A stretch of 32,000 bases of DNA from Trichodesmium erythraeum IMS101 (GTDB lineage: Bacteria > Cyanobacteriota > Cyanobacteriia > Cyanobacteriales > Microcoleaceae), in assembly GCF_000014265.1 (NCBI RefSeq), contig NC_008312.1, positions 6,510,001 through 6,542,000 on the forward strand, in the 5' to 3' direction. Position numbers and translations under genes: made by a program. The notes beneath the pieces are model-generated. The model was not told the origin of the DNA and searched no databases. It was given only the letters and a program-made list of their open reading frames with translations. Below, in pieces: positions 7,335-26,423 of the stretch (positions are counted from its first letter, which is position 1; each line of letters begins with the position of its first letter).

Positions 7335-9740
7335 ATGAAAATGGAAATAGATGAAGATATTCAAGCTTTCCTAATTGACAGCTATGAAACTATTAATAAG
7401 CTAGAGAGTGATTTGGTAGCACTAGAAAAACACTCGATAAATCCTGAGTTGATCCAATGTATTTATCGTTCGCTTCATACTTTAAAAGGAAACAGTGGAT
7501 TTCTCGGTTTAGATACCCTTCAATCTTTAGCTCATGCAGGGGAAAATTTATTGGCCTGTTTGCAAGATGGTAGAATTATTATCACTCCTGAGATTATGAA
7601 TGTTTTACTTCAGGCCATTGATGGGATTAAACAAATTCTCTACTGTCTTGAAACAACGGGAAAACAAGGAGATTATAACTATAACTCCCTCTTAAAGAAT
7701 TTGGCAAGTATCACCTCATCAGAACAGACTGAAAAAGCCCAAACAGAGGTTTCTTTAGACTATGAAGATTCTTGGCCTCAGTTGGAAAAAGTAGACAATT
7801 CTTCTCAAAATTTGAGCACCACTGATGCTCAACAGACAGCCTTTGTTGAGGAACAAGCACTCCCTGAAAAAACCGAGCAATTATTGAATACTTCAGAGAT
7901 TTCTTCAACGCTTCCTTTATCAGGAAATCTCTCGGAAGATATACTAACTACTAATTTAACTGCAAGTATCTCAGGTAATTACATTCGAGTAGATGTACAA
8001 CTGTTGAATCAATTGATGAATTTGGTGGGGGAGTTGGTCTTATGTCGTAACCAAGTCTTGGTATTTAATAATAGACAGACTGATAGTGTTTTTGGTGATA
8101 CTTCCCAACGTTTAGACTTAATAACAACAGAATTACAAGAAGGGTTAATGAAAACTCTGTTGCAACCAATTCGTAAAATTTGGAATAAATTTCCTAGAGT
8201 AGTGCGGGATTTATCTTTGTCCTTAGGCAAAGAAATAAATTTAGAAATGGAAGGAGAAGAAACGGAGCTAGATAAAACCTTAATTGAAGCTATTTCAGAT
8301 CCCCTCACCCATTTAGTGCGTAATTGTGTGGATCATGGTATTGAACACCCAGATATTAGAATTAGTAAAGGTAAACCACCTATCGGTAGACTTTGGTTAA
8401 GAGCTTTCCATGAAAGTGGTTATGTCAATATAGAGATAGGGGATGATGGGAGAGGAATTGATATAAAAAGGATTAAAGCTAAAGCTCTTCAGCGTCATAT
8501 TATTACTCATGAGCAAGCATCCTCTTTAACTGAAAATGAGGCATATAATCTGATTTTTATTCCAGGATTTTCTACTGCTCCAAAAATCACTAATATCTCA
8601 GGACGTGGAATAGGGATGGATGTAGTCCGAAATAACATCGAAAAAATTAGTGGTACTATTAATATTTCCAGCCAACTAGGTCAGGGAACTACTTTTAAAT
8701 TAAAAATTCCCCTGACTTTAGCTATTATCCCTACCTTAATTGTTACTACTAATGGCGATCGTTATGCAATCCCCCAAGTTAGTTTATTAGAATTAGTACG
8801 TCTGGAAGGGAAAGATGCTAAAAAAAAGGTAGAAATGGTTCATGGTGCCCCTATTTATCGATTGCGGGGTAATCTTCTGCCTCTTGTATATTTAGATAAT
8901 GTACTACAATTGGAAGCAAATAAGTCCCACCGTTATCCTTTGGCCACTCCCTGGTTAGAGGGTGTAAGTCTCAAGGGACAAAGTGATAACCTTGATATTC
9001 TCAATATTGTTGTTGTGCAAGCCGCGCATCAGTCTTTTGGTTTAGTGGTTGACGCTATTAATGATACTCAAGAAATTGTAGTTAAACCTCTAGGAAGACA
9101 GCTCAAAAAGATTTCTTGTTTTGCTGGAGCAACAATTATGGGAGATGGAAAGGTAGCATTGATTTTAGATATTCAGGGACTAGCTCAAACTGTTCATCTT
9201 GTTTCAGAAGAAAAAGATTCCTTGATAATAGCGCTAGAAAGTGAACCTCAACAAGCTTTTGATGAGTTGGAGATGTTATTGTTATTTTCTGGACCTGCTC
9301 ACCGACGGATGGCTATTGCTAGGTCTAAGGTTGCTCGTTTGGAGGAATTTCCCATTAGTTCTGTAGAGCATGTTGGTAATCAAAAGGTGATTCAATATCG
9401 TGAAAAAATCTTACCTTTGATTTATTTATCAGAGTTTTTTGCTACAAATCAATTATCTTCTCAAAGCCAAAATGTTCCTCAATTATTAACTATTCAAGTG
9501 GTTGTAGTAGTGATAGATGAGGATAATTTAGTAGGATTTGTGGTGGAGCAAATTATGGATATTGTGGAACAAGAAATTAAGATTAAATATGCTGCTATTG
9601 AAAAAGGAATTGATTATGCGGCAGTTATTCAGGAGAGGGTGACAGAAATTTTGAATGTGGAGGAAATAGTTAAGGTGGCTAATTTAAAGTTTGATAGAAA
9701 TTTTAAAGAGCAATTGTCAGACAAACAACTGGCAACATGA
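7335..9740 (+). CDS. cheA: Chemotaxis histidine kinase CheA (Hpt, dimerisation, HATPase and two CheW-like domains; no receiver)
   Basis: 801 aa. Hpt with phospho-His context SLHTLKGNSGFLG. Dimerisation region IRVDVQLLNQLMNLVGELVLCRNQ. N-box HLVRNCVDHGIE, G1 GDDGRGID, G2 SGRGIGMDVV. P5 CheW-like domain RYAIPQVSLLELVRLE...KVALILDI. A second CheW-like domain follows: LLLFSGPAHRRMAIARSKVARLEEFP...VTEILNVEEIV. Confidence 0.95.
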   Translation: MKMEIDEDIQAFLIDSYETINKLESDLVALEKHSINPELIQCIYRSLHTLKGNSGFLGLDTLQSLAHAGENLLACLQDGRIIITPEIMNVLLQAIDGIKQILYCLETTGKQGDYNYNSLLKNLASITSSEQTEKAQTEVSLDYEDSWPQLEKVDNSSQNLSTTDAQQTAFVEEQALPEKTEQLLNTSEISSTLPLSGNLSEDILTTNLTASISGNYIRVDVQLLNQLMNLVGELVLCRNQVLVFNNRQTDSVFGDTSQRLDLITTELQEGLMKTLLQPIRKIWNKFPRVVRDLSLSLGKEINLEMEGEETELDKTLIEAISDPLTHLVRNCVDHGIEHPDIRISKGKPPIGRLWLRAFHESGYVNIEIGDDGRGIDIKRIKAKALQRHIITHEQASSLTENEAYNLIFIPGFSTAPKITNISGRGIGMDVVRNNIEKISGTINISSQLGQGTTFKLKIPLTLAIIPTLIVTTNGDRYAIPQVSLLELVRLEGKDAKKKVEMVHGAPIYRLRGNLLPLVYLDNVLQLEANKSHRYPLATPWLEGVSLKGQSDNLDILNIVVVQAAHQSFGLVVDAINDTQEIVVKPLGRQLKKISCFAGATIMGDGKVALILDIQGLAQTVHLVSEEKDSLIIALESEPQQAFDELEMLLLFSGPAHRRMAIARSKVARLEEFPISSVEHVGNQKVIQYREKILPLIYLSEFFATNQLSSQSQNVPQLLTIQVVVVVIDEDNLVGFVVEQIMDIVEQEIKIKYAAIEKGIDYAAVIQERVTEILNVEEIVKVANLKFDRNFKEQLSDKQLAT

Positions 9741-9794
9741 AAGGTGAAACTTCTCTGGAAAATACAGCAATTCTTAGAAAAGGAAAAAGCACTA

Positions 9795-9831
9795 GCAAAA
9801 ACCAATAAACATAAGTTTTTGCTGGTTTTCC
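9795..9831 (+). terminator. Weak hairpin plus T-tract between cheA and cheW (possible attenuator or terminator)
   Basis: gcaaaaac (9795-9802) pairs with gtttttgc (9815-9822) around a 12-nt loop, followed by tggttttcc. The stem is A/U-rich and therefore of low stability. Confidence 0.25.
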
Positions 9832-9946
9832 GACCTCAGCTAAACCTACAGTATTATTAAGTATTAAGTTTAGAGAGTTGAAGCTAAACTACAAACAAAG
9901 ACTTTTTTATAACTAATTATCTAAACATAAGATTTGCTTATAAAAA

Positions 9947-10402
9947 ATGGAAAATCTAATTCAAAAACCGACTCAAGAAAATAAATTTTGTACTTTTTAC
10001 CTGGACAAACTATTCTTGGGAATAGAGGTAGAAAAAGTGCAAGAAATTATTCGTTATCAAAAGATAACTCATGTTCCTTTATCCTCACCAGAAGTGGCTG
10101 GATTAATTAATCTTCGGAGTCAAATTGTGATTGCGATTGATTTGCGAAGGAGATTGAATTTAACTGATAATAAAATGGAAAAATTACCTCTTAATGTAGT
10201 AATATCTTCTGAAGATGAAACAGTTAGTTTATTAGTGGATGAAGTTGGGGATGTTATTGATGTATCTCAAGAGAGTTTTGAAAAGCCACCGGAAACATTG
10301 AGAGGAAAAGTACGGAGATTAATTCGAGGCGCTTATAAGCTAGAAAAACAACTTTTACTAATTCTTGATGTGGAAAAAGTAATTAATATAAATGTTATTT
10401 AG
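9947..10402 (+). CDS. cheW: Chemotaxis coupling protein CheW
   Basis: 151 aa, a single CheW domain: FCTFYLDKLFLGIEVEKVQEIIRYQKITHVPLSSPEVAGLINLRSQIV...LLLILDVEKV. Length is typical for CheW. Confidence 0.9.
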   Translation: MENLIQKPTQENKFCTFYLDKLFLGIEVEKVQEIIRYQKITHVPLSSPEVAGLINLRSQIVIAIDLRRRLNLTDNKMEKLPLNVVISSEDETVSLLVDEVGDVIDVSQESFEKPPETLRGKVRRLIRGAYKLEKQLLLILDVEKVININVI

Positions 10403-10406
10403 ACTC

Positions 10407-11523
10407 TATAGCAATCCCATATTGGTCGCAACAGATATAATAGTAAGAATAACAGATCTAAGAAAAAGACAAAAAATGAATATTATAGATAAACTAAATG
10501 ATTTTATTAATCAAACAAAAGAGTCTAAAGAAATTAAAAGGGCCTTGGCCGTAAAAATGACCTTGTCAGGAAAATCCTACCATGAAGTCAAAGAATTATT
10601 AAATGTTTCTCACAGTTTTATTAGTGAATGGAAAAACCAAGCATTATTTCATGGTGTAGAAAGTTTAAGGCTTCAGTATCAAGGGAGACAAGGTTACTTA
10701 AAAACGGTCGAAAAAGAGAAAACAATTGAGTGGTTGAGAGCACAAGATTATCTTAGGTTATCAGATTTAAAAAACTACTTACAGGAGCAATATGATGTGG
10801 TTTTTGAGTCTAATCAAAGTTACTATAACTTGTTTAAAGAAGCGGGCATAAGTTGGAAAAAAACTCAAAAAAAGAATCCTGCTAAAAATGATGAATTAGT
10901 AGAAGTTAAAAGAAAAGAAATACAGGAATTTTTAGCTAAATGGCAACCAGAAATAGAAACTGGAAAGCTTACAGTGTTTATGATTGATGAATGTCATCTT
11001 CTATGGGGAGACATATTAGGTTATGCTTGGGGAAAAACAGATGAAAGAATAGAAATTGCAATTAAAAATGAAAAAGAAAGACAGACTTATTATGGAGCTT
11101 TAGACTATAAAACCAAGGAATTTCTTGTGCAAGAATATGAGAGTGGAAATACTAAAAATACTATTGAATTTATTAAATATTTGCAGAAGCAAAGACCGGG
11201 CAACAAATTGGCAATATTTTGGGATGGGGCAACTTACCATAACTCTCAAGAATTTCGAGAATATTTAATGACAATTAATCAATACTTATCAGAAGAAGAA
11301 TTGTTGATAAATTGTACAAGATTTGCTCCCAATGCTCCGGAGCAAAATCCTGTTGAAGATATTTGGTTACAAACCAAAAATTTCAGTATTACTTTTTATC
11401 ATCTTTGCAGTTCTTTTAAAGTAGTTAAGTGGCTATTTAAGTTTTTTGCGGATGGTCAAATATTCAATTTCCCAAAACTTTTTCAGTATGAAATTTTGCC
11501 GCAACCTACTTAGGATTGCTATA
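10407..11523 (+). mobile_element. IS630-family insertion sequence with TA target-site duplication
   Basis: Terminal inverted repeats tagcaatcc (10409-10417) and ggattgcta (11513-11521). They extend imperfectly to about 24 bp (17 of 24 matches by hand alignment). The element is flanked by TA (10407-10408) and TA (11522-11523), the duplication expected for IS630/Tc1-mariner. It contains one intact DDE transposase gene. Confidence 0.85.
10476..11513 (+). CDS. IS630-family DDE transposase
   Basis: 345 aa from the ATG at 10476 (MNIIDKLNDF). N-terminal HTH region (SYHEVKELLNVSHSFISEWK). DDE_3-type catalytic residues in FMIDECHLLWGD, IFWDGATYHNS and APEQNPVEDIW. The stop codon lies inside the right inverted repeat. 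The ORF-track extension to 10392 reads through the left inverted repeat and the end of cheW, so it is not believed. Confidence 0.9.
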   Translation: MNIIDKLNDFINQTKESKEIKRALAVKMTLSGKSYHEVKELLNVSHSFISEWKNQALFHGVESLRLQYQGRQGYLKTVEKEKTIEWLRAQDYLRLSDLKNYLQEQYDVVFESNQSYYNLFKEAGISWKKTQKKNPAKNDELVEVKRKEIQEFLAKWQPEIETGKLTVFMIDECHLLWGDILGYAWGKTDERIEIAIKNEKERQTYYGALDYKTKEFLVQEYESGNTKNTIEFIKYLQKQRPGNKLAIFWDGATYHNSQEFREYLMTINQYLSEEELLINCTRFAPNAPEQNPVEDIWLQTKNFSITFYHLCSSFKVVKWLFKFFADGQIFNFPKLFQYEILPQPT

Positions 11524-13024
11524 TTTGCTTTCCTGATTTTTAAGTAGTTAGAATCAGGGCAATCAATGTTTGCTAGCAATCAATATGCTATTTATCATAC
11601 CAGATCCAGAAAAAGTGTTTATTATTACTAATTGTTAGGACGCGATATTATATAAAGTATTTAATTTTACCTGATTATTGTAATAGATAATTTTTTAACA
11701 ACGGTATTACTTTTAATATTTTACTAAAGAATAAGTGTTTATACCAAATCCATCAAGTGTGAGAGGGTATTTTTTCAACTTACAGCTTCTAACCCTAAAC
11801 GTGGAAACGGATTAGTTATAAATGTTCCATAGAACGTTTGTACAAAAAATATTAAAATTAACACAATTTGAGAGCGTTAATAATGCAAAAAGTTTATTAC
11901 CTTCGTATTAATTACTTTTACTTAAATTTATAAAGTTTGACAAAAAGTTAGTATTAATAAATGCTAATTAATATAAAAGCTTTTGTCAAGGGGTGAATAC
12001 TTAAAGTAGTTTGCCAAATATTGAGTTTAACAGGAGGCCTATATCAAGGGTTATACAGAAGAATTAGAAGTATGATTTAACTTAAAATAAGTATTTTTAT
12101 GAAGAGCTATAGCAATAATTTATCCTAATTGATTCGGAGATAAAAAATGTTATATAATAGTAAGTATATATTGAAACTCAAAGTACCTATTGAGGAGTTT
12201 CAATATTATGCTCCTGAATGGCGATCGCTGGATTTTTTAGCTTTTTTTAGGATATAAAAAAGCTTTAATTCACTTTGATATCCTACTTTCTGTTAAAACA
12301 AAGCAGAATGAATAGGATCAACTTTAATTAAGTTTTTTCTATAGTAAACCTGATTTGCTTTAATAAGAATATAATCTAGTTATTCAGCTATTTTATAAAG
12401 TTTAGTTTTTTTGTGGGGATATATCTATCTCACAGTCAACCTACTAGTTTTTTTACTTCCTAGTTTTGAAATTTGGAGGTTAAAGAGGGTTACCTTTTCT
12501 CTTCTCTTTTGGAGAACTAAAAAAGTTGATAGAAGCGAAGGGATTTGATTGTTCAGAAAATGAAACTTTTCTATAGCTTAAATGATTCAATAATTGCTAT
12601 AATAGAAGAGCTAAAGCTGTATCATAACCATTTTCTTTATTCATTATTTGGAGCTTGAGTAACAAATAGTTTTGATAGTTCAAACAATAATGGTTTCTCT
12701 CAGCATAATTTAATAACTCATAGTAGGGAGAATTATTATTATTCCCAATAATATGGACACGACCAAATGGATTTTTTCTCTCTAGTTTTTTGATCATGAA
12801 ATTTACTCAATACGATAATTGATGCTTATATTTAGTGCTAATAATTTTTTATATAAAACTTAAATAACAATCATAATATAATTATATTCAGTTGATTGAT
12901 AAATAAACAAAGTTACCTTTTAAGGGTGAGGCTTCAGGCTTATTTTTTCACAGAATACCCTATTTCAGTGTGTGATCTAGATCTTAATATCTTTAACCTT
13001 TTAGCCATTAAGTTAATAAGTAAT

Positions 13025-13039
13025 TCCTAGAACTTCTAG
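13025..13039. repeat. Perfect 15-bp palindrome CCTAGAA-C-TTCTAGG, 45 bp upstream of cheB
   Basis: Read directly from the sequence: 7-bp arms with a 1-nt spacer. The operator function is hypothetical, and palindromes of this size are expected a few times by chance in 32 kb. Confidence 0.3.
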
Positions 13040-13083
13040 GCTTAGAGTTTGCACCAGAAAATTCAAGTGATGATTAAGTTATT

Positions 13084-14142
13084 ATGCCTAAATTCCGTAT
13101 CCTGATTGTTGATGATTCGGTAATTGTTCGCCGAATTATCAATAATATCCTATCTGAGTCAGATTGGATAGAAGTAGTGGGTGTAGCCCCAAGTGGCCAA
13201 ATTGCTTTAGCAAAGATTCCTCAAGTTAACCCTGATCTGATCATACTTGATGTGGAAATGCCAGAAATAGATGGTTTAGAAACTTTAAAAAGAATTCGAC
13301 AAACCTACAAGCAACTTCCAGTGATTATGTTTAGTGCTATTACTCAACGTGGGGCAATAGCAACATTGGATGCCCTGACTTTAGGAGCTAATGACTATAT
13401 TACTAAACCTGCTAATATGGGCAGCAAAGAGAAAGCCATTGAATACATCAGAAAACAGTTGATTCCTAAAATTCAAGTTTTCTGTCACCGTAAAGTTAGT
13501 TTAACAAAACATTGCTTGGCCCCATCTATGACTTCTTTTCAGAGAAAGACTTCTACTCAGCTGTTGACCTTGAAATTAGAAATTGTCGCTATTGGAGTTT
13601 CTACAGGAGGACCTCAGGCTTTATATCAGCTTTTACATAAGTTTCCCGCCAGCTTTCGGGTTCCTATTGTTATTGTTCAACATATGCCTCCTGTTTTTAC
13701 TACTCGGTTAGCTGAAAGGTTGTCTTCTCAATGTAAGATTCCTGTGCATGAAGCAAAAGACAGAGATGTGATTAAATCTGGAGAAGCTTGGATTGCACCA
13801 GGGAATTATCATATTATTTTAGTGAGGGAAGGTAAACAAGTTCGTATTCAGACCATACAAACCCCTCCTGAAAACTCCTGTCGTCCAGCGGTGGATGTTT
13901 TATTTCGTTCAGTAGCTAAACTTTATCAAGGTGCTGTACTTGGGGTTGTATTAACAGGCATGGGCCAAGATGGACTCCATGGTTGTACTTCTATTCGTGA
14001 AATGGGAGGACAAGTTTTAGTCCAAGATCAAGCTAGTAGTGTGATCTGGGGAATGCCAGGAATGGTTGCTAATGCGGGACTTGCTGATCAGATTTTACCT
14101 TTAAATAAATTAGCTGAAGAGATTATCCGTAGGATTGGTTGA
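13084..14142 (+). CDS. cheB: Chemotaxis response regulator protein-glutamate methylesterase CheB
   Basis: 352 aa. REC (ILIVDDS, LIILDVEMPEIDG, ITKP) plus a methylesterase domain. The Ser-His-Asp triad contexts are IGVSTGGPQAL, VQHMPPVFT and LTGMGQDG. Confidence 0.95.
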   Translation: MPKFRILIVDDSVIVRRIINNILSESDWIEVVGVAPSGQIALAKIPQVNPDLIILDVEMPEIDGLETLKRIRQTYKQLPVIMFSAITQRGAIATLDALTLGANDYITKPANMGSKEKAIEYIRKQLIPKIQVFCHRKVSLTKHCLAPSMTSFQRKTSTQLLTLKLEIVAIGVSTGGPQALYQLLHKFPASFRVPIVIVQHMPPVFTTRLAERLSSQCKIPVHEAKDRDVIKSGEAWIAPGNYHIILVREGKQVRIQTIQTPPENSCRPAVDVLFRSVAKLYQGAVLGVVLTGMGQDGLHGCTSIREMGGQVLVQDQASSVIWGMPGMVANAGLADQILPLNKLAEEIIRRIG

Positions 14143-14283
14143 TTAGAGAGTTGGGAGTCGAGATTTGGGGATAAATTGATTGATATTTCATCAATTTACT
14201 TCTGGGGAAAAAATATTTTATATTTGATTAATTAAGTAGTTATTAATACTTAATTTTATTACTAAAAGAGATGCTCCCAATTT

Positions 14284-15108
14284 ATGTCTATTAATTCTAT
14301 TGATTTTAAATATATTCGTCAACTTCTTGACCAAAAAACATCGGTTATTTTACCGTATGATAAGGTTTATTTTGTTGAGTCTCGTTTGGCTCCTATAGCT
14401 AGTTCAGAAAACCTTAATTCTGTCAGTCAATTAATTACTAAGCTGCGGAACAATCCTTTGAATGATTTACATAAACGGGTAATTGAAGCTTTGATGACTA
14501 CTGAAACATCTTTTTTTCGGGATAATTATCCTTTTGAAGCTCTGCAAAAATTTATCTTGCCAGAATTAATAAGTAAACAAAAAATGAAAAGTTCTCTTAG
14601 TATTTGGTCTTCTGCTTGTTCTAGTGGTCAAGAGCCTTACAGTATAGCAATTTTATTACAGGAATATTTTCCCGTAATTAACAATTGGAATGTTTCAATT
14701 ATTGCTTCTGATATTTCTGAGCAAATGCTAGAATTGGCAAGGATTGGACGTTATAATCAGCATCAAGTTGAGAGAGGATTATCAGTTTATTTCCAGAATA
14801 AATATTTTCAGCGGCAGGGAAAGGAATGGCAAATTATTCCAGAAATTTGTCGTAAGGTAGTATTTAGGCAATTAAATTTATGTAAAAAATGGAATAATTT
14901 ACCAAAAATGGATTTAATTTTTTTACGAAATGTATTAATTTATTTTAATATTGAGACTAAGCGAAATATTCTTTTTAAAGTTCGACAGTTATTAAAGCGT
15001 GATGGTTATTTATTTCTGGGAGGGGGAGAAACAACGATTAATATTGATGATAATTTTGAATTAGTTAGGTTTAATAGAGCTATTTGTTATCGGTTGCGTA
15101 AGAAATAG
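14284..15108 (+). CDS. cheR: Chemotaxis protein methyltransferase CheR
   Basis: 274 aa. N-terminal CheR helical domain (TSFFRDNYPFEAL) and SAM-binding motif WSSACSSGQEPYSIAILL, followed by IASDIS and IFLRNVLIYF. Confidence 0.93.
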   Translation: MSINSIDFKYIRQLLDQKTSVILPYDKVYFVESRLAPIASSENLNSVSQLITKLRNNPLNDLHKRVIEALMTTETSFFRDNYPFEALQKFILPELISKQKMKSSLSIWSSACSSGQEPYSIAILLQEYFPVINNWNVSIIASDISEQMLELARIGRYNQHQVERGLSVYFQNKYFQRQGKEWQIIPEICRKVVFRQLNLCKKWNNLPKMDLIFLRNVLIYFNIETKRNILFKVRQLLKRDGYLFLGGGETTINIDDNFELVRFNRAICYRLRKK

Positions 15109-16290
15109 AATCTGCTTAATAAGTCTGTAATACCAAGAATGGAAAAATAATGTTATTAGTCATACTAAATCTGGATATGAAAGTATGCTTATTCCATAGC
15201 AAAATCTCTAATTTAGCAACAGCTATAACTTTAAATAATACTCTCTTAAAGTTTGCGGATTTGGTATAATAAGGTTGATAAAAATACTTGCTCAGGACTA
15301 AGGATAATGTAGAATTTGAGTCTTGTGGTCGAGATAGATTTGGAGAAGACATCAATTGAGAAATTAAGTAGTTAAAGCTATAGGATGCATGCAGTGTGTC
15401 GTTTAAGGATAATTCAAAAAATCTATTAGGCTTGTGGGATGGAACCTGTGGAACTTTTTTACAAGATTTGCTTATTATATAGGAAAAAGTCTTGATCAAG
15501 TTAAGGAATTATTATTAAAATATCTGACTGACCAATTGAAATATCCTTCAATTAAGATGAAGCAAATTTTAACTTGAATAAGTGATCATTATCCAACCTA
15601 TACCCAGGTTAAGTTTATAAATTTTGAAGATTTTTTAGGTAAGACAGGGTAAGAATGGCGGTTGACTTTGTCAATATAGATTTAGATAACAGAGTTACTC
15701 TCTTTCAGCTAATAACATTCATTAAGCAACAATAAGATATGTGACGATTGCAGTTAATAATGGATCAGCATAATTATTACTTTCTCACCCAGATAACATA
15801 TTCCCAGACTCTTCAATGACATACTTAACAAGGACTTGAGCACCGTGACGGTCATTTAGTTACCTAGATTACGTAGGTAGGACAAAAAAGCTTAACTATA
15901 TTAAATTTTGTAAAATAACTCCCAACTTATCTAGAAAGTTAACTTGAGAATAAATTTATATTTTATTACATGGACAAATTTTAACGCCTAACTACTTAGT
16001 TTTATAATAAAATAGTTAACTAACCTAAAAAAAGCCCCCAATCTTAATCTACGGAATATAAGATTCTGACTTCTGATTCTTAAAAAATACCCTAGCTATT
16101 TGTAGCAATTTGTAGCAAAAATTTATCTTAATCACACTTGGTATAACATTCTTTCTTCAAAATGTTATAAAAGCAATAATCGAATTTAGAGATATTCAAT
16201 GGAAACTCCCTAAATTAGATAGGGTTTAATTAATTTAACTTGATATTAGGGATTTTTTTCCATCTATTTTTAAGACTCAAATTACAGTTT

Positions 16291-19200
16291 CTAAAATTTA
16301 AACTGATTTACTAATTCATGTAAGTCTCCTGCCGTTTTGGATAACTCAGTTGCAGATTTTTGGGTTTTGGCTGCTCCATTACTGGTACTTTGGGCTGTTT
16401 TTGCCACGCTGGTAATATTAAGGGCAATTCCCGATGACCTTTCTGCTGCTTGGTTAACATTACGGGCAATTTCATTGGTAGTGGCGGTTTGCTCTTCTAC
16501 CGCCGAGGCGATCGTACCTTGGATGTCATTAATTTGACTAATAATAGTAGTAATTTGACCGATAGCTTCTACTGCTCCTCTAGTATCCCCTTGAATAGCT
16601 TCAATTTTTTGACTAATATCTTCAGTTGCACTAGCGGTTTGTTTTGCTAATTCTTTAACTTCATTGGCAACTACCGCAAAACCTTTCCCTGCTTCTCCCG
16701 CTCTTGCTGCTTCAATAGTGGCATTAAGAGCAAGAAGGTTGGTTTGTTGAGCAATAGAAGTAATAACTTTAATCACATTACCAATTTCTGCACTACTAAC
16801 TCCTAACTTACCAATAGTTTCATTAGTCGTTTCAGCAGTTTTTACAGCAGTTGTGGCAACTTGAGCAGCATTAGTAGCATTTTTAGCAATTTCTTGGATG
16901 CTAGTAGTCATTTCTTCTACACCAGTAGCAACTGACTGAACATTAGCGCTCACTTGTGCAGCGTTACTAGAAACTGACTCTGCTTGAGTCGAGGTTTCTT
17001 GAGATGCTTGACTCATAGTTTGACTTTCCGCCATCATCTCCTCAGATGACTTGGCCACAGCGATCGCTGCTTTCGCAATTTTTTTTACTTGTTCAGTTAG
17101 GTTAGCTGCCATACCATTCACATTATCAGTCAACTCTTTCCATGTTCCAGCCACTCCTTCCACCTTCGCTTGGCCTCCCAATGTTCCTTCGGTCCCTACT
17201 TCTTTAGCCACCCTACTGACTTCAGATGAAAACCCATTGAGTTGGTCTACCATTTTATTCAAAGTAGTCTTCAGTTCCAATATCTCCCCTTGAGCATCAA
17301 CAGTAATTTTCTGAGTTAAGTCCCCCTGAGCAACTGCTGTAGCCACCTCAGCAATATTTCTCACCTGTAAAGTGAGGTTAGCTGCCATACCATTCACATT
17401 ATCAGTCAACTCTTTCCATATTCCAGCCACTCCTTCCACCTTCGCTTGGCCTCCCAATGTTCCTTCGGTCCCTACTTCTTTAGCCACCCTAGTTACTTCA
17501 GATGAAAACCCATTGAGTTGGTCTACCATTTTATTCAAAGTAGTCTTCAGTTCCAATATCTCCCCTTGAACATCAACAGTAATTTTCTGAGTTAAGTCCC
17601 CCTGAGCAACTGCTGTAGCTACCTCAGCAATATTTCTCACCTGTAAAGTGAGGTTAGCTGCCATACCATTCACATTATCAGTCAACTCTTTCCATGTTCC
17701 AGCCACTCCTTCCACCTTCGCTTGGCCTCCCAATATTCCTTCGGTTCCTACTTCTTTAGCCACCCTACTGACTTCAGATGAAAACCCATTGAGTTGGTCT
17801 ACCATTTTATTCAAAGTAGTCTTCAGTTCCAATATCTCCCCTTGAACATCAACAGTAATTTTCTGAGTTAAGTCCCCCTGAGCAACTGCTGTAGCTACCT
17901 CAGCAATATTTCTCACCTGTAAAGTGAGGTTAGCTGCCATACCATTCACATTATCAGTCAACTCTTTCCATGTTCCAGCCACTCCTTCCACCTTCGCTTG
18001 GCCTCCCAATATTCCTTCGGTTCCTACTTCTTTAGCCACCCTACTGACTTCAGATGAAAACCCATTGAGTTGGTCTACCATTTTATTCAAAGTAGTCTTC
18101 AGTTCCAATATCTCCCCTTGAACATCAACAGTAATTTTCTGAGTTAAGTCCCCCTGAGCAACTGCTGTAGCTACCTCAGCAATATTTCTCACCTGTAAAG
18201 TGAGGTTAGCTGCCATACCATTCACATTATCAGTCAACTCTTTCCATATTCCAGCCACTCCTTCCACCTTCGCTTGGCCTCCCAATATTCCTTCGGTTCC
18301 TACTTCTTTGGCCACCCTACTGACTTCAGATGAAAACCCATTGAGTTGGTCTACCATTTTATTCAAAGTAGTCTTCAGTTCCAATATCTCCCCTTGAACA
18401 TCAACAGTAATTTTCTGAGTTAAGTCCCCCTGAGCAACTGCTGTAGCCACCTCAGCAATATTTCTCACCTGTAAAGTGAGGTTAGCTGCCATACCATTCA
18501 CATTATCAGTCAACTCTTTCCATATTCCAGCCACTCCTTCCACCTTCGCTTGGCCTCCCAATATTCCTTCGGTTCCTACTTCTTTGGCCACCCTACTGAC
18601 TTCAGATGAAAACCCATTGAGTTGGTCTACCATTTTATTCAAAGTAGTCTTCAGTTCCAATATCTCCCCTTGAACATCAACAGTAATTTTCTGAGTTAAG
18701 TCCCCCTGAGCAACTGCTGTAGCCACCTCAGCAATATTTCTCACCTGTAAAGTGAGGTTAGCTGCCATACCATTCACATTATCAGTCAACTCTTTCCATA
18801 TTCCAGCCACTCCTTCCACCTTCGCTTGGCCTCCCAATATTCCTTCGGTTCCTACTTCTTTGGCCACCCTACTGACTTCAGATGAAAACCCATTGAGTTG
18901 GTCTACCATTTGATTCAAAGTAGTCTTAAGTTCCAATATCTCCCCTTGAGCATCAACAGTAATTTTCTGAGTTAAGTCTCCCTGAGCAACTGCTGTAGCT
19001 ACCTCAGCAATATTTCTCACCTGTAAAGTGAGGTGATCTGCCATACCATTCACATTATCAGTCAACTCTTTCCAAACACCAGATAACCCTTCTACCTTGG
19101 CCTGGACTCCTAATTTACCTTCTGTACCCACTTCCTGAGCAACCCGCGTTACTTCTGAGGAAAAACTATTAAGTTTGTCCACTATTTGATTAACAATGCT

Positions 19201-19743
19201 CCCAATACGGTAGAATTCTTCATTTAAGGGTTTTCCTTCGAATTGAAAGTTAATTTTTTTTGACAAATCTCCATTCGCCACTGCTTCTAAAACCAGAGAA
19301 ACTTCCCTACTAGGTTTGGTCCAATTATTAATTAGTTCATTGAGGCTATCAATACTTGATTTCCATGAGCCTTTAACTTCTGTGAAACTTTTTCTAGTGG
19401 TTAATTCTCCTTCTTGCCAAACTTCACGACTAATGCGCCCAATTTCTTCTGCAAAGTTTTGATTAATTGCTATCATTTGATTAAAAACAATAGCTACTTC
19501 TCCTAAGCCATTATTTTCTGGAATACGCACAGTAAAGTCTCCATCTCTAGCAGCTTTCATAGCTACTAATAATGGATTAATATTAGGATTATTATTTATA
19601 TCAATATCAGTTTTTAGTTGAGACCTTGGAGTTGATAAAATTGTTTCAGATTCAGTTATAGTTTCTGGTTTTTTTTCTACATTTATTTCAGTATCTTCAA
19701 AGAATACCTGAAGACCAGAATTTCGTTTTTTAGGAATTGTCAT
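16291..19743 (-). CDS. Soluble methyl-accepting chemotaxis protein with a poly-HAMP array (about 9 di-HAMP units) and a C-terminal MCP signalling domain
   Basis: 1150 aa with an ATG start and no hydrophobic TM segment anywhere. Residues ~56-877 are consecutive HAMP pairs (A.GDL..KI....GE...L...N.M...L pattern). The signalling hairpin tip is highly conserved: [37 protein letters not shown]. Two canonical methylation-site consensus matches are present ([10 protein letters not shown] and [10 protein letters not shown]), consistent with the adjacent CheB and CheR. Confidence 0.95.
17113..19044 (-). repeat. Seven in-frame tandem copies of a 276-bp (92-aa, di-HAMP) unit, about 98-100% identical
   Basis: The Met codons of MA(A/D)(N/H)LTLQ recur at 19044, 18768, 18492, 18216, 17940, 17664 and 17388, an exact period of 276. 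The 17648/17924 units look identical by eye, as do 18200/18476. Other copies differ at a handful of sites, giving I/T, V/A, S/T and K/Q substitutions. A more divergent di-HAMP unit precedes the array (residues ~146-233). Confidence 0.95.
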
Positions 19744-20077
19744 TTTAGCTATTAGTTATTATTTATGAACAAATGCAGCTATTTGCAGTCAGCTTTAAAT
19801 TATAATTTTGTTGGTACTTATCCCTTTAAAAGAGGATAGCTAAGACCTTATTGATTTTGTCAGAATTTTCTACTTTGACTTTCAACTTATTTAAAATATG
19901 ATTCATCAAGTATAAGTCTGTTACTGCTAGAACAAAGGGGTGGAAAAAGGAATTATTTTTAATAATCTAATTATTAACCTATTTTTACTAAAAAAGTTTA
20001 GATCCCTAGAAACCCAGTAGCTTTTAAAATCTCTTAAAATTGCAGGCTTATTTATGATGAATTAATGGTAAGTTTAG

Positions 20078-20878
20078 TTATGATAAATCTCTGGCTATTT
20101 CCATATAATTTTTAACAATTTGACTTGTGGGTGAAATATGAGAAATTGGCATACCCTCCTGTTGTGAGCGATAAACTAAAAGGGATTCTGGAATTTTATA
20201 TAGGGGATAAGACATTCTTTTTACTGCCTCCTCAATTTCTTCAAAAATGCTATTTTTTAAGCTTTTGTTTGATTTATGTGATACTTTAGATTTCGTATAA
20301 CGATTAAAAACAACTGTAAATCTATTAATTTTATGTATCGTCATTTCCTGAATGTTCTGACAATAAATTTTGAATTTTTCTAACGCCTCTAGAGAAAAAA
20401 CACTACTATCAATAGGAATAACAGCCTCATCTGCTGCTCGTAAACTATTGAGCATAAATAAGCCTGTGTCTGAGGGCACATCAATTAAAATATAATTATA
20501 ATAGGATTTAATTAGGGTTAATATTCGATTTAAAGTTCCGACTTTATCTTTACCTTGCTGCATTAAAATAGAAGCTGTTGCTAAATTTAACTCAGAGGGA
20601 ACTAAATGAAGATTTTCTATTTGTGTTGCTAAAATTGCCTGAGTAATAGGAACTCCTTGATATTGATTAAATTGATTTAAAATTACATCATAAATAGAGT
20701 TTTCTAAATTATTTTCATCAATTCCTAACCCAGAAGTTGCATTCGCTTGAGGATCAAAATCTACTACTAATATTCGACTTTTTGGATTAATTATAGTTAA
20801 ACATCCAGCAATATTTATGCAAATAGTAGTTTTTCCTGTGCCTCCTTTGAGGTTAGCGAAAGCAATAGTTTTAGCCAT
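20078..20878 (-). CDS. ParA/MinD-family P-loop ATPase (deviant Walker A)
   Basis: From the ATG at 20878: MAKTIAFANLKGGTGKTT (deviant Walker A KGGxxK[ST]), VVDFDPQANAT (ParA switch region), ILIDVPSDTG (Walker B). The ORF-track start at 20920 is TTG. It lies 334 bp upstream of the MCP gene on the same strand. Confidence 0.85.
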   Translation of the reverse strand: MAKTIAFANLKGGTGKTTICINIAGCLTIINPKSRILVVDFDPQANATSGLGIDENNLENSIYDVILNQFNQYQGVPITQAILATQIENLHLVPSELNLATASILMQQGKDKVGTLNRILTLIKSYYNYILIDVPSDTGLFMLNSLRAADEAVIPIDSSVFSLEALEKFKIYCQNIQEMTIHKINRFTVVFNRYTKSKVSHKSNKSLKNSIFEEIEEAVKRMSYPLYKIPESLLVYRSQQEGMPISHISPTSQIVKNYMEIARDLS

Positions 20879-21524
20879 AATTGTTGAATTATGATCTTTA
20901 CTATATATTTTTTTGATCAAAACAATGATTCTACTAAATCTAGTTATTATAAGTTGATTATAGACTCAATAATAATATAGATATCCATAATTAGCTTTTC
21001 TTTCCGATAATTTGAGTAATGATACTATTGCTAGTTTTTCAATCTGAAATACTCCAATTGTTTTTGTTAATATCATTATACATAACAATCTTCTTTTTAC
21101 CTTTTTCCAAGTCTGACCACTTTTGGGAAATAGGGAATAAGCTATAGGTTATAGGTAAAAGTCTCGGAGTTTATTTATAGTTTTCTTAGATCCTTTCGCT
21201 ATAGCGGTTATTATAGCAGTCTTATTTAAGTTGTAAGATTTTTTTTGCTGAGAGTTAAAAGTTAAATACTCAAGAGTTAGGGGCTATAACTTCAAAGTTT
21301 TTCAAGTAAAATTAATGGCTGTAAAATTATCGCAACTAATGAGTAAATTACTATATATAAATTTCTAGATAAGTTAATATGTTGTAACAAAAGTTATTAT
21401 AATGAATTAAATTTACATAAAAAATCAACTAGATATAAAGCTCCAAAATTGATAAGATAGAGGAAGAACTTCGACTACTAAACTTTAGCTTTTGACTTCT
21501 TCATCCTTTCACAAAGCTGTTAAT

Positions 21525-22598
21525 TTAAGCAGTATCATAGCTAGAATGCCTGACACAATTTCGGCCATTTTTTTTAGCAAAATAAAGAGCTTTATCGGCT
21601 TGAGAAATTAATTCGTCTAGATGTGATTTTATAGTCGGAATAGTTGTTGCTACACCTAAACTAATAGTAATATATTTATCAACTTTTGAATCCTCATTAA
21701 CAATTTTTAAACTATTAACTTGCATACGAATACTTTCAGCAATAAACATAGCTCTATGTTTGCCTGTATTGGGTAATACTACCACAAATTCTTCTCCTCC
21801 ATAACGAGCAGCTAAGTCTGTTGTTCTTGTTAAAGGTTTTTTAATTTCTTGAGCTACTTTTCTTAAACAAATATCCCCTTCAGGGTGACCATAAGCATCA
21901 TTAAATAATTTAAAAAAATCAATATCTATCATTATCAAAGAGATGGGCTGAGCGTCGTAGATAGATTTTTTCCAATCTTGTTGTAAGACTGTTTCCCAGC
22001 AATAGCGATTAGGAATACCTGTCAAAGGATCTGTATTTGAGATTTTTAGTAAATGTTCTAGCTGCTCATTTTGTTTCTTAAGTTCATCAGTTCTTATTCT
22101 GACTTCATGAGTTAATTTTTCATTAAAGCTATTTAATTGTTGTTCTCTTTGCTTGAGTTTTTGTACTAAATTAATTCTTTCCAAAGAATAGCGAATAGAA
22201 CGGATTAAGACTTCTGCTGAAATTTCATTTTTCACTAAATAATCCTGCGCTCCTTTTTGAACTACTTCAAGAGAAAAATCCTCATCATTCTTACCAGTTA
22301 AAACAATAATTGGAATATTAGTAGTTATTTCTATCATCTGGGAAATAGTCTCAAATCCTTGACTATCAGGTAGTCCTAAATCAAGTAAAATAACATCAAA
22401 ATTTGTTTGATTAAGTTGCTTAGTTGCTAAAGATAATGTACTACAATGAGTCACAAAAAACTTTAAGGATGATTCAAATTTTAATAACTGCTTAATAATA
22501 AAAGCATCCCCTAGATTATCTTCTACTAATAGGGTATTTAAAGAATCTTTTTGCTTAAGATAATTGTTCCTAAACATAGTTTTATTTTTATTAGACAT
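21525..22598 (-). CDS. Response regulator with GGDEF output (diguanylate cyclase, WspR/PleD-like)
   Basis: 357 aa. REC (LLVEDNLGD, VILLDLGLPDSQG, VLTGKND, DYLVKN), a coiled-coil linker, then a GGDEF domain. The active site RYGGEEF is intact, and an RxxD I-site (RTTD) lies exactly 5 residues upstream, the same spacing as in PleD. Confidence 0.92.
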   Translation of the reverse strand: MSNKNKTMFRNNYLKQKDSLNTLLVEDNLGDAFIIKQLLKFESSLKFFVTHCSTLSLATKQLNQTNFDVILLDLGLPDSQGFETISQMIEITTNIPIIVLTGKNDEDFSLEVVQKGAQDYLVKNEISAEVLIRSIRYSLERINLVQKLKQREQQLNSFNEKLTHEVRIRTDELKKQNEQLEHLLKISNTDPLTGIPNRYCWETVLQQDWKKSIYDAQPISLIMIDIDFFKLFNDAYGHPEGDICLRKVAQEIKKPLTRTTDLAARYGGEEFVVVLPNTGKHRAMFIAESIRMQVNSLKIVNEDSKVDKYITISLGVATTIPTIKSHLDELISQADKALYFAKKNGRNCVRHSSYDTA

Positions 22599-23206
22599 TT
22601 AACAAAATTATATTTTGCTATTTTATTTTTTTTATGTTAGGATAAGGATCTGAGAATTCATCAGGAAAGAAATAAAAATTAGGGGTTAGTGAAAGCACAA
22701 AACATTAGATAGGTAATTAGGCATTCCGCTTCTGTCAAAACTGTCTCCGTCTTTCTAAAAAATAAGTCAAAACTAGTCTAGATATAAGAATTACCTTCAT
22801 GCCATAAAAATGCCTAGAGCCCTTGCTGATTTAGGATTTATACTTTTTTGACCCAAGACCTTTTGTCCATCTATATTTGAGCCTGTTTTCTAGGTCTATT
22901 TTGTTTAAGTTCCACCCAGGGATCACTGTTTCTAAGAATTCAGAGAGGAGGGGATTTTTCATGATCTAGATACAAATTATAAATACTCACGCCTTTTCAC
23001 TATAGTTTTTTTTAATGAGATCTAAAATTAAGAATAGCTTATTTACTAACATCTAAAATGGAAGGCTAATATTCTTACCTGTTTGTATGTATGGATGCTT
23101 TTTATTTCAAACCATTGTCTAAAAGCAGCCTGGTTTTTTATGCAATTCAAATAAAATTTATATTTTTGTTCTCGTTCCTATTAATTATAACTACTCCCTG
23201 CCTATT

Positions 23207-25552: not shown

Positions 25553-25679
25553 ATTTGGATTTTATATAAAGCAGATAATATATTGAATTTTATCACCAGA
25601 CTAAAATAAAATAGCAGGTTGAATTTTATTTTACAGCTTGAATTGAAAGCCTAATGCACTATCAATAAGAACAAATGGT

Positions 25680-25700
25680 TTATTGTCTGTTAGACAATAA
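25680..25700. repeat. Perfect inverted repeat TTATTGTCT-gtt-AGACAATAA, about 130 bp upstream of the pcrA start
   Basis: 9-bp arms with a 3-nt spacer, read directly. It is a candidate operator or hairpin; no known box was recognised. Confidence 0.4.
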
Positions 25701-25877
25701 GAAACAACAATGCAATAACCTTAAGTTGGTTGTTCTGGGAACTAAACCAGAGTAAAGCTTTATTGATTAGGACTTAAAGTCTTAGTTGCTAAATAGCTTT
25801 CATAGCTTAAGTTTTTTTGTAGCTGTAGTCAAGCTTTAACCAGAAATGTTAATTTTTATTAATAATTATTTTTTTTT

Positions 25878-25906
25878 TGACTTTTTTCAATCTATGTGAT
25901 ATAATA
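25878..25906 (+). promoter_or_regulatory. Near-consensus sigma-70-type promoter (TTGACT, 17 nt, TGaTATAAT)
   Basis: -35 TTGACT at 25878-25883. The spacer is exactly 17 nt. The extended -10 is TGATATAAT, with TATAAT at 25901-25906. It points toward the helicase gene about 1 kb away. The surrounding DNA is A/T-rich, which raises the chance of such a match occurring at random. Confidence 0.3.
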
Positions 25907-26423
25907 TAATAAGTTTTGTTGACAAGATTAGGTAGAAAAAGAAAACGAAAACCTATCCTTAATTACTTGACCCTCGACTGTATTGTTAATACTACTATTA
26001 GGTATGAATTCCATAATCCACTGATAGTTAGCATCAGTTTGTCATCAAAATTACTCTTATAATTAGAATAAATATGGCTGAGCTCTCAATAAAGTTTAAC
26101 TCCGGCTTCCGTCGTTTTCACAGCTTACCCACAATTAAATTTAAATTTTGCTTTTCTGACTTTTGCTGTTCAGTTAATTCTCATCCCTGAGATTTTCATT
26201 GTGAGGCTTTACATTTGAATAAAAATCAACTTTACTTATTTAAAATAACACATACATAGGGATCTTGTAGCAGTATTAGTAGTGAGGGAAAACTATGTGA
26301 ATAAGTAGCTTGAGTCAAGAGCAGTTTTGTTGTCTGGGTCGTAGATAAATTACAAACTGCGGTCAGTGGTATATGCATGAAACACTGCAGCTAACTCCAA
26401 AGCTGATGCAATTCCCGATCCAT

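Follow-up and report, generated by a model that had tools for sequence, protein, structure and literature searches.

The term poly-HAMP is applied to arrays of at least five HAMP domains joined directly to one another and made up of repeated di-HAMP modules, each pairing a noncanonical with a canonical HAMP (Dunin-Horkawicz and Lupas; Coles et al. 2026). Their modules have been described as nearly identical, with intragenic amplification and tuning by array length, and each di-HAMP as a self-contained, sign-preserving toggle that restores the sense of rotation (PMC13446029). Among the closest described systems is AskA of Myxococcus xanthus, a kinase-associated type C/D array (PDB 9trk and 9trj; Coles et al. 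2026, PMC13446029), in which a cap HAMP (D1) is followed by ten C-D2 pairs (21 HAMPs) and then by GAF, histidine kinase, and receiver domains. Type A/B arrays belong to chemoreceptors, that is, soluble methyl-accepting chemotaxis proteins (MCPs) with a long di-HAMP array, often of nearly identical modules, upstream of the methyl-accepting domain (PMC13446029). The fungal group III hybrid histidine kinases (Nik1, Os-1, and TcsC) carry a 92-aa di-HAMP repeat of the same family, whose number differs among related proteins and whose array is thought to act as the sensor. Aer2 of Pseudomonas aeruginosa (PDB 3LNR and 3VOL), a soluble MCP whose concatenated HAMPs alternate in conformation, has been classed as "multi-HAMP," not as a repetitive poly-HAMP array (PMC13446029). 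Here, we report a poly-HAMP MCP of Trichodesmium erythraeum IMS101; its array is real, but it is an instance of this already described feature (PMC13446029). A literature search found nothing specific on a Trichodesmium poly-HAMP or MCP gene or on HAMP with concerted evolution.

The window analyzed was a 32,000-nt stretch of the T. erythraeum IMS101 genome (NC_008312.1), and coordinates refer to positions within it. The MCP gene (16291..19743, minus strand; open reading frame list and translation) encodes 1,150 aa, with Pfam matches to HAMP (1e-78), HAMP_2 (9e-70), and MCPsignal (3.5e-36). An initial annotation, made from the sequence, had called the protein soluble, and we agree, since the maximum 19-residue Kyte-Doolittle hydropathy was only 1.22 and no transmembrane segment was predicted. 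The N-terminal tail (aa 1 to 56; 19576..19743, minus strand) was poorly conserved in alignments and without a recognized domain; Pfam found no upstream sensor domain in it. It is followed by a cap region of HAMP1 to HAMP3 (aa 57 to 193; 19165..19575, minus strand), which aligned to AskA residues 30 to 329 (9trk), and by the repeat array, HAMP4 to HAMP18 (aa 194 to 879; 17107..19164, minus strand), comprising seven full 92-aa di-HAMP units and a final noncanonical HAMP. The total is 18 consecutive HAMPs (three in the cap, seven di-HAMP modules, and the final noncanonical one), which makes this a poly-HAMP protein as defined above. The signaling domain (aa 954 to 1118; 16390..16884, minus strand; PF00015, 3.5e-36) matched Tsr and TM1143 structures in the PDB at 1e-17 to 1e-23. 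Pfam found no GAF, HisKA, or HATPase domain after the array, with MCPsignal there instead.

The 92-aa unit had been proposed to be one di-HAMP, and this was supported by Pfam (HAMP plus HAMP_2) and by phmmer, in which residues 32 to 331 matched residues 30 to 329 of the AskA six-HAMP crystal construct (9trk) at an E value of 3.8e-88. Each unit consists of a 42-aa noncanonical HAMP and a 50-aa canonical HAMP. As in AskA, an N-terminal cap HAMP is followed by alternating noncanonical and canonical HAMPs with a 92-aa period. Further hallmarks of AskA-type arrays are a proline and a linker insertion of 5 residues in the third HAMP, a Trp in every noncanonical HAMP, nearly identical modules, and no upstream sensor domain. 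All of these are found here: judged from sequence, HAMP3 has a proline in its input helix ("TKPSREV") and the linker insertion (GDL-to-end length of 36 residues, versus 31 in the repeat HAMPs), and a G-x-W motif occurs in nine of nine noncanonical HAMPs (aa 125, 222, 314, 406, 498, 590, 682, 774, and 866). By homology to 9trk and 9trj, the HAMP array is predicted to form one continuous dimeric four-helix rod leading into the MCP signaling domain; its cap and first modules have a crystallized counterpart in this close homolog. As there is no dedicated sensor domain, the array itself or the N-terminal tail must take the input.

The protein differs from AskA in its output, which is MCP signaling in place of GAF, kinase, and receiver domains, and in that the array ends on a noncanonical HAMP (HAMP18). 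It shares the general plan of the type A/B arrays but, unlike them, has the Trp and matches kinase-type AskA; here the type A/B arrays were set apart by description only. The MCP carries an array with the published kinase-type hallmarks, and therefore the boundary proposed to divide chemoreceptor from kinase arrays is not absolute. The fungal group III kinases were among the best protein-search matches, but they are eukaryotic, have a kinase output, carry five or six mutually diverged repeats, and feed the HOG pathway. Aer2 gave a weak direct match (3vol, E value of 1.2e-5), and its five diverse HAMPs are interrupted by a heme-PAS sensor, unlike those of T. erythraeum.

At the nucleotide level, Tandem Repeats Finder reported a period of 276 with 7.6 copies, 97% matches, and 0% indels (17095..19191). 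Seven near-identical in-frame 276-bp repeats had been noted at 17113..19044 (7 × 276 nt); these differed pairwise at 0 to 11 nt, and the neighbors that had looked identical (17648/17924 and 18200/18476) showed 0 differences over 276 nt each. Unit-lengths just outside this block had 128 and 171 nt differences. In the protein register (units starting FSSEV), there were eight unit starts with exact 92-aa spacing, the eighth being a half-unit. Unit 1 differed from the others in this register at about 33 nt, 27 of which fell within its first 90 nt; units 2 to 7 were 0 to 7 nt apart, and the identical adjacent pairs were units 2 and 3 and units 5 and 6, which could be very recent single-unit duplications. 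Because the divergence of unit 1 is concentrated in its first 90 nt, units 2 to 7 are near-identical, and the eighth is a half-unit, we placed a homogenized block at about 17095..19074 (minus strand; about 7.2 units at ≥97.5% nucleotide identity, from the lag-276 identity profile, variant-site positions, and a distance matrix). Its limits are nt 91 of unit 1 and about nt 138 of the terminal half-unit, and 17113..19044 falls inside it. Two more divergent di-HAMP units had been described before the array; correspondingly, HAMP1 to HAMP4 (aa 57 to 235) precede the homogenized block. The amino acid variants listed earlier (GIW/GTW, GIL/GTL, VDV/VDA, SRV/TRV, and NK/NQ) were all present, but variation was not limited to a few residues: units 2 to 8 had eight to nine variable sites, about half of them synonymous (sites 15, 27, 39, and 165). 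No variant among units 2 to 7 was private to one unit; each recurred in another unit or in an edge unit, as expected if recombination spreads variants.

The ortholog of Dapis BLCC M126 (1,151 aa) also has eight unit starts with 92-aa spacing, and its unit count equals that of T. erythraeum. Its units are 27 to 47 nt apart (unit 1, 74 to 87 nt), with 83 to 90% mutual identity, and the interior units of Okeania are 8 to 35 nt apart, versus the 0 to 7 nt of T. erythraeum. When units were compared one by one in a matrix, those at the edges of the Dapis and Okeania arrays (unit 1, unit 2, and the terminal half-unit) proved to be positional orthologs (10 to 22 nt differences), and interior units grouped by lineage (Trichodesmium, Okeania, and Dapis). 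The T. erythraeum interior units were all nearest to the unit-2 type of the relatives; they were 36 to 58 nt from the interior units of Dapis and Okeania and 30 nt from a unit of the kind found in Trichodesmium MAG_R02. The ancestral motifs "AKVATAISVGDL...GELQRLKDTINLMVDSLN" and "EVVAGQLGGQA" are common to Dapis, Okeania, and three further homologs (P0008, P0018, and P0020); T. erythraeum has the repeat consensus in place of both. Unit 2 of T. erythraeum and that of Dapis differ at 43 nt but only 9 aa; interspecies unit differences are mostly silent, and the units are therefore under purifying selection.

Comparison among these lineages shows interior units homogenized separately in each lineage and edge units kept as positional orthologs in Dapis and Okeania, which we read as concerted evolution. 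The array interior would be homogenized in each lineage by recurrent exchange among the 276-bp units, through unequal crossover and/or gene conversion. In Trichodesmium the repeat consensus has replaced two ancestral HAMPs, the second of unit 1 and the last of the array. We infer recombination from such sequence patterns, in which gene conversion, unequal crossover, and contraction with re-expansion are indistinguishable. The initial annotation had attributed the near-identity to recent duplication or gene conversion, and the variant pattern and lineage clustering support recent recombinational homogenization by duplication, unequal crossover, or gene conversion. Its description of the array as recently expanded was not borne out: Dapis M126 has the same unit count, and two ancestral edge HAMPs were lost to the repeat consensus in T. 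erythraeum, so that homogenization, or contraction followed by re-expansion, fits at least as well as simple expansion. A simple recent expansion, which leaves the edge-HAMP loss and the equal count in Dapis M126 unexplained, was rejected, although the equal count could be a coincidence.

Copy number among the orthologs was always n + 1/2 (n = 6, 7, 7, 13, at least 13, and 15), for a range of 6.5 to 15.5; the Okeania array apparently has at least 11 to 12 units, with two 100-N scaffold gaps inside. A genome scan with exact peptide patterns from the T. erythraeum N terminus found no relative (the source genome was likewise not returned), and a protein search with the N-terminal region alone retrieved only short partial proteins, missed full-length orthologs, and gave no copy numbers. 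A metagenome scan with an N-terminal profile found no Trichodesmium, only distant relatives (≤47% identity) that were mostly soil kinase-type proteins; these distant loci were reused as family background. Across about 100 family loci, the period-276 array was near-universal, copy number was about 2 to 15, and adjacent-unit identity was usually 0.72 to 0.87, with a few loci at 0.98 to 1.0. The prediction that copy number varies within and between populations was supported between genera (6.5 to 15.5) and across the family (about 2 to 15) but not within T. erythraeum, whose short versions resemble chimeras created in assembly. The accompanying idea of a "length-variable receptor" is already in print for poly-HAMP arrays (PMC13446029).

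The array had also been flagged as an assembly hazard, which it proved to be: six assemblies break or carry gaps at the array, and twelve predicted proteins from short-read assemblies have only 1.5 or 2.5 units. These twelve are mutually inconsistent mosaics, and sequence comparison indicates that the 1.5- and 2.5-unit versions are most likely, for the most part, collapsed assemblies of a 7.5-unit array. The alternative is real length polymorphism, in which T. erythraeum would have natural alleles of 1.5, 2.5, and about 7.5 units, arising by frequent unequal crossover at a contingency-like locus. Eight proteins are exactly 598 aa (1.5 units) and one is 690 aa (2.5 units), with flanks 98 to 100% identical to IMS101, and these versions are found on contigs as long as 49.6 kb that cross the locus without interruption, where one would expect unitig-based assembly to stop at a multicopy loop. 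One short version (L108) has a junction from unit 1 to the half-unit (states T27, G39, C50, and C89) that spans less than k = 127 and is absent from IMS101, and copy number clearly varies among orthologs. Against this, the short versions conflict with each other at every diagnostic residue. Two (P0218 and P0221) are unit 1/interior/unit 1 mosaics, impossible by a single crossover from an IMS101-like array, and another (P0230) holds T. erythraeum-specific unit states between flanks that belong to a different species. L108 and L110 agree fully in their flanks and in unit 1, yet they have 1.5 and 2.5 units, respectively, and the two assemblies were made with different k. Further T. erythraeum assemblies (L002 and L003) break exactly at the onset of near-identity, and in the MAG_R02-like species the locus is variously broken (L007), of 1.5 units (L004), or of 2.5 units (P0230 and P0242); in the 1.5-unit version of that species, exact lag-276 repeats reach no more than 33 nt, which is not enough to make an assembly break. 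For the choice between collapse and real deletion, the mosaics seen at diagnostic residues told more than junction k-mers and reasoning about assembler behavior. We regard real short alleles as unlikely.

Considerably less probable is that the reference itself is at fault, with a real array but a misassembled count of seven and arrangement of variants. The longest exact lag-276 match in the array is 477 nt, so that about 750 nt pass without a distinguishing site, close to the length of a Sanger read, and every other assembly of T. erythraeum fails at the array. However, the units can be ordered by the eight to nine variant sites, the reading frame stays open over the entire array, and 7.5 units is also the count in the independently assembled Dapis M126, whose divergent units assemble easily. 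Strain 21-75 had 99.55% identity over window positions 19031 to 26605, in agreement with T. erythraeum as the source.

The suggestion that recombination could tune the number of sign-inverting HAMPs was not upheld. Whole-unit changes cannot invert the signal because each di-HAMP preserves sign: the 276-bp unit holds one noncanonical and one canonical HAMP, a toggle, and each exchange would shift a whole such pair, so that length could vary without altering the sign of the transmitted signal. Copy number appears constrained to whole pairs, as the n + 1/2 count in all orthologs suggests. Individual HAMPs have been proposed in the literature to reverse the sense of helix rotation, but alleles differing in output polarity are scarcely credible here and were rejected, as the repeat period is exactly one noncanonical plus one canonical HAMP, that pair is called a self-contained toggle that restores the rotation sense, and no half-unit variation was seen.

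The gene neighborhood contains candidate signaling partners. Directly upstream of the MCP gene is a ParA/MinD-like ATPase gene (20078..20920, minus strand; Pfam AAA_31 and CbiA), and a ParA-like gene also adjoins the MCP gene in Dapis, Okeania, Trichodesmium MAG_R02, Caldora, and Symploca. Farther upstream is a response-regulator diguanylate cyclase, REC-GGDEF, similar to WspR/PleD (21525..22598, minus strand; Pfam and NCBIfam), kept upstream of the MCP gene in Dapis, Okeania, and MAG_R02. A CheR methyltransferase gene (14284..15108, plus strand) is convergent with the MCP gene and is also found in Okeania and wild contigs. Domain matches identified a REC-CheB methylesterase (13084..14142, plus strand), CheW (9947..10402, plus strand), and a CheA histidine kinase with Hpt, dimerization, HATPase, and CheW domains (7335..9740, plus strand). 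All four che genes lie within 10 kb of the T. erythraeum MCP gene; in Dapis, che genes are absent within 10 kb of the ortholog.

An MCP with CheW, CheA, CheR, CheB, and a REC-GGDEF output protein at one locus resembles the Wsp system (WspA-F, WspR), and one homolog (P0001) is annotated as WspA by NCBI. The locus departs from Wsp in three respects: the receptor is soluble, whereas WspA is membrane-bound and has a periplasmic domain; CheA lacks the receiver domain that is fused to CheA in WspE; and the locus includes a ParA-like gene. Judged from its gene neighborhood, the receptor would probably signal via the neighboring CheA and CheW, with the REC-GGDEF protein as the target and c-di-GMP as a Wsp-like output; adaptation of the poly-HAMP receptor would fall to CheR and CheB, and the adjacent ParA-like ATPase would probably position a cytoplasmic receptor cluster. 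Such positioning is known for TlpT/PpfA of Rhodobacter sphaeroides, whose cytoplasmic clusters are placed by a ParA-like ATPase; the likeness here is that a soluble MCP gene adjoins one for a ParA/MinD-family ATPase. FrzCD of M. xanthus also forms a cytoplasmic cluster, positioned by the nucleoid, and has a di-HAMP between its N-terminal tail and MA domain (PMC3964821, PMC11407121, and PMC12077210). A difference from clusters of the TlpT/FrzCD type is that the N-terminal tail of the T. erythraeum MCP is not markedly basic (7 K+R versus 9 D+E per 56 residues).

Taken together, we think it likely that the whole account is right, namely, an AskA-like poly-HAMP array under concerted evolution, signaling as inferred, with short versions that are mostly collapsed assemblies. 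In practice, the array matters chiefly because it makes short-read assemblies break or collapse. Almost all public Trichodesmium short-read assemblies and metagenome-assembled genomes misrepresent the MCP gene: it appears as a protein of 598 or 690 aa, as a truncated gene, or with a scaffold gap. Protein catalogs and pangenome comparisons will therefore list length variants wrongly. If some of the short alleles were real, this cytoplasmic chemoreceptor would vary naturally in length, with a poly-HAMP rod of the kinase type joined to an MCP output controlling c-di-GMP, and would be a direct natural experiment on the effect of poly-HAMP length. The Trichodesmium, Okeania, and Dapis orthologs offer a clean, small-scale view of concerted evolution within a signaling protein, with the edges conserved and the interior homogenized in each lineage.

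A single strong tandem array was found in the region (window 17095..19191; period, 276 nt; 7.6 copies; 97% matches; no indels; Tandem Repeats Finder), within the minus-strand open reading frame 16291..19743 of a soluble poly-HAMP chemoreceptor (MCP) of 1150 aa. The initial annotation had described near-identical 276-bp tandem repeats here; the array, its frame and both of the identical unit pairs were recovered, so that the array is real and its description accurate. In that register (17113..19044), seven 276-nt units differ pairwise by 0 to 11 nt, with no differences between 17648 and 17924 or between 18200 and 18476, and the adjoining unit-lengths on its two sides diverge by 128 and 171 nt. 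In the protein register (units counted from FSSEV), there are eight unit starts spaced exactly 92 aa apart. Unit 1 departs from the consensus at 33 sites, 27 of them within its first 90 nt, and the eighth is a half-unit matching as far as approximately nt 138, which together place the homogenised block at approximately 17095..19074; units 2 to 7 are 0 to 7 nt apart (2 and 3 are identical, as are 5 and 6). The amino-acid variants previously listed are all present, but about half of the variable sites in the array are synonymous. The longest exact match at a lag of 276 nt was 477 nt. An 80-aa open reading frame antisense to the array (17051-17293, plus strand), lying within repeated sequence, is almost certainly spurious.

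The MCP comprises an N-terminal tail of 56 residues, a three-HAMP cap (aa 57-193), seven di-HAMP modules (each a 42-aa noncanonical HAMP plus a 50-aa canonical HAMP) and a final noncanonical HAMP (aa 838-879), for a total of 18 HAMPs. Pfam matched HAMP and HAMP_2 repeatedly and placed an MCP signalling domain at aa 954-1118; no transmembrane segment was predicted in the protein, and no dedicated sensor domain was found in it. Residues 32-331 match PDB 9trk, a crystallised construct that spans the first six HAMPs of Myxococcus xanthus AskA (E = 3.8e-88). At aa 175 (19219-19221), IMS101 and several wild contigs carry Glu ('PLNEEF'), and strain 21-75 and two metagenome-assembled genomes carry Gly ('PLNGEF'), as do all other aligned family members; the HAMP2-3 junction of T. 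erythraeum deviates from 'NNLA.PT.EVSRVL.AV', a motif kept from Dapis to Candidatus Magnetomoraceae.

Poly-HAMP arrays have been defined as repeating di-HAMP modules, with chemoreceptor-type (A/B) arrays set apart from kinase-type (C/D) arrays; the C/D type was assigned to GAF-kinase proteins only, and chemoreceptor arrays usually carry Phe where kinase-type arrays carry Trp (Coles et al. 2026, PMC13446029). The MCP is strongly similar to the kinase-type AskA, cap HAMP included, its HAMP3 has a proline and a 5-residue linker insertion, and Trp occurs in nine of nine noncanonical HAMPs, whereas its array (17107-19575, minus strand; aa 57-879) is fused to an MCP output, unlike that of the GAF-kinase proteins. 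The array thus bears the kinase-type hallmarks, its class being assigned by the published diagnostics. A kinase-type array with MCP output was present in approximately 20 of the 120 best database matches and, among fetched loci, mainly in cyanobacteria.

A REC-GGDEF regulator and a ParA/MinD-like ATPase lie upstream on the same strand, and CheR, CheB, an IS630-family transposase, CheW and CheA lie downstream, convergent. The REC-GGDEF, ParA-like and MCP trio is kept in Dapis, Okeania and Trichodesmium MAG_R02, and the ParA-like gene also adjoins the MCP in Caldora and Symploca. In Okeania, the order is cheA, cheW, REC-GGDEF, parA-like and MCP, with oppositely oriented cheR and cheB following, whereas in T. 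erythraeum (IMS101 and wild contigs; 7335-22598) the cheA-cheW block is on the other flank, past cheB, which indicates a rearrangement before the IS630 insertion. The transposase (DDE_3 and HTH_33; 10410-11521, plus strand; open reading frame 10392..11513) directly follows cheW; a Tara Oceans contig (L108), 99.4 to 99.6% identical on either side, lacks those 1112 bp and has a 3-bp overlap where the two sides meet, so the insertion is IMS101 specific or polymorphic. In strain 21-75, REC-GGDEF was called as two open reading frames of 300 and 57 aa (L002 7165-8218), reflecting either a frameshift in the strain or a sequencing error, against one of 357 aa in the window. A response regulator weakly matching CheC/CheX-like phosphatases (4681-5751, minus strand) lies upstream of cheA, close to genes for a PAS histidine kinase (2089-3231) and a stand-alone receiver (3286-3720), and may also belong to this chemosensory locus.

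Domain architecture, homology to the solved poly-HAMP rod and conserved neighbours are the established part of a proposed mode of action. A dimeric 18-HAMP rod would relay or modulate a conformational signal to the MCP tip, signal passage in the published poly-HAMP model being by axial helix rotation (PMC13446029). The tip would control CheA and CheW, and CheA would phosphorylate the REC-GGDEF protein to give a c-di-GMP output, as in Wsp, with CheR and CheB supplying adaptation. By analogy with PpfA with TlpT and nucleoid-bound FrzCD (PMC3964821, PMC11407121, PMC12077210), the ParA-like ATPase may position a cytoplasmic receptor cluster.

The closest complete ortholog, from Dapis sp. BLCC M126 (P0062; 1151 aa), has the same eight unit starts, with units 27 to 47 nt apart (unit 1 by 74 to 87 nt) and unique flanks 83% (N-terminal) and 91% (C-terminal) identical to those of T. 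erythraeum; T. erythraeum strain 21-75 is 99.55% identical over window 19031-26605. A unit-by-unit matrix was built from T. erythraeum, two Dapis strains, Okeania and MAG_R02-like Trichodesmium. Between Dapis and Okeania, orthology is positional for unit 1, unit 2 and the terminal half-unit (10 to 22 nt differences), and interior units are closer within a lineage than between lineages (Okeania, 8 to 35 nt; Dapis, 27 to 47 nt; T. erythraeum, 0 to 7 nt). The interior units of T. erythraeum are all nearest to the unit-2 type of relatives (36 to 43 nt) and to the MAG_R02-like unit (30 nt). Two distinctive edge HAMPs, the second of unit 1 ('AKVATAISVGDL...GELQRLKDTINLMVDSLN') and the last ('EVVAGQLGGQA'), are kept in Dapis, Okeania and more distant cyanobacterial orthologs; Trichodesmium has the repeat consensus in place of both. 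None of the variants among units 2 to 7 is private, each being common to another unit or an edge unit, and unit 7 has three states in common with unit 1. Unit differences between species are mostly silent (e.g., 43 nt versus 9 aa), from which purifying selection on the units follows. Together, the matrix, edge-HAMP replacement, shared variants and silent differences make recombinational homogenisation well supported, the array carrying the marks of concerted evolution through unequal crossover, gene conversion or both. The recent expansion initially proposed, as a simple one-off event, is not supported by the data. Each of the two pairs of identical neighbours could stem from a very recent duplication of one unit. 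The unit count may have stayed constant at 7.5 or contracted and then re-expanded; both fit the sequence. Third-position GC was 0.375 in the array, against 0.181 and 0.243 in the N- and C-terminal parts of the gene, respectively, and the contrast was much smaller in the less homogenised Dapis array (0.293 versus 0.221 and 0.272); GC-biased gene conversion could account for this, as could mere codon usage in the repeat.

The assembly hazard anticipated earlier was strongly borne out for short-read data, in broken, gapped and inconsistent contigs. Two other T. erythraeum assemblies stop where near-identity begins (L002 at 19031, L003 at 18894), the Trichodesmium MAG_R02 contig stops 154 nt into unit 1 and that of Dapis M172 in unit 4, Okeania and Symploca scaffolds have runs of N at the array, and approximately 40 of approximately 100 family contigs stop inside it. 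The IMS101 count matches that of the Dapis M126 array, which is easy to assemble. Searching with a synthetic minimal allele (N terminus, unit 1, half-unit and C terminus) returned eight proteins of exactly 598 aa (98 to 100% identity) and a single 690-aa protein; their contigs reach 49.6 kb. From the MAG_R02-like species, 2.5-unit versions were also found. L108 joins unit 1 straight to the IMS101 half-unit without a difference, in L109 the half-unit joined to unit 1 opens with interior-type states before switching, and L110, with flanks and unit 1 identical to those of L108, has one additional interior unit of a haplotype absent from IMS101. At diagnostic residues, every short protein is a different mosaic; in P0218 and P0221, unit 1 states are followed by interior states and then by unit 1 states again, a pattern that no single crossover could produce. 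A metagenomic protein of 691 aa (P0230) with MAG_R02-like flanks and T. erythraeum-specific unit states (ADH, LNQ, ...GIW) probably arose in assembly as a chimera of two species, joined inside the repeat that they share. The same locus in the MAG_R02-like species was seen both broken and in versions of 1.5 and 2.5 units; exact lag-276 repeats in the 1.5-unit version do not exceed 33 nt, so that it would not break an assembly. The short versions are most economically read as chimeric collapse of a multi-copy array, and it is unlikely that the 1.5- and 2.5-unit versions are real short alleles. Length variation within populations, as initially suggested, is unsupported by the present data, the short versions being mutually conflicting mosaics.

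Complete or nearly complete orthologs all have n + 1/2 units, with n of 6 (P0020), 7 (IMS101 and Dapis M126), 13 (P0008), at least 13 (P0018) and 15 (P0001); Okeania apparently has at least 11 to 12 units, in an array interrupted by two 100-N scaffold gaps. Across approximately 100 wider-family loci, a period-276 array is almost universal (approximately 2 to 15 copies); identity between adjacent units is usually 0.72 to 0.87 and reaches 0.98 to 1.0 in a few loci (L005, L065, L068 and L091); the window array is at the family extreme (mean, 0.954; maximum, 1.0). The central idea of the initial annotation, a length-variable receptor, is already in print for poly-HAMP arrays (PMC13446029), of which the MCP array is a further instance of a known, recently characterised kind. 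Sign tuning by copy number, also suggested there, is contradicted, since the di-HAMP is described as a sign-preserving toggle (PMC13446029) and gain or loss of whole units therefore preserves the sign of the signal. As orthologs and family loci differ in unit count, these comparisons indicate that copy number is labile over evolutionary time, changing always by whole di-HAMP modules.
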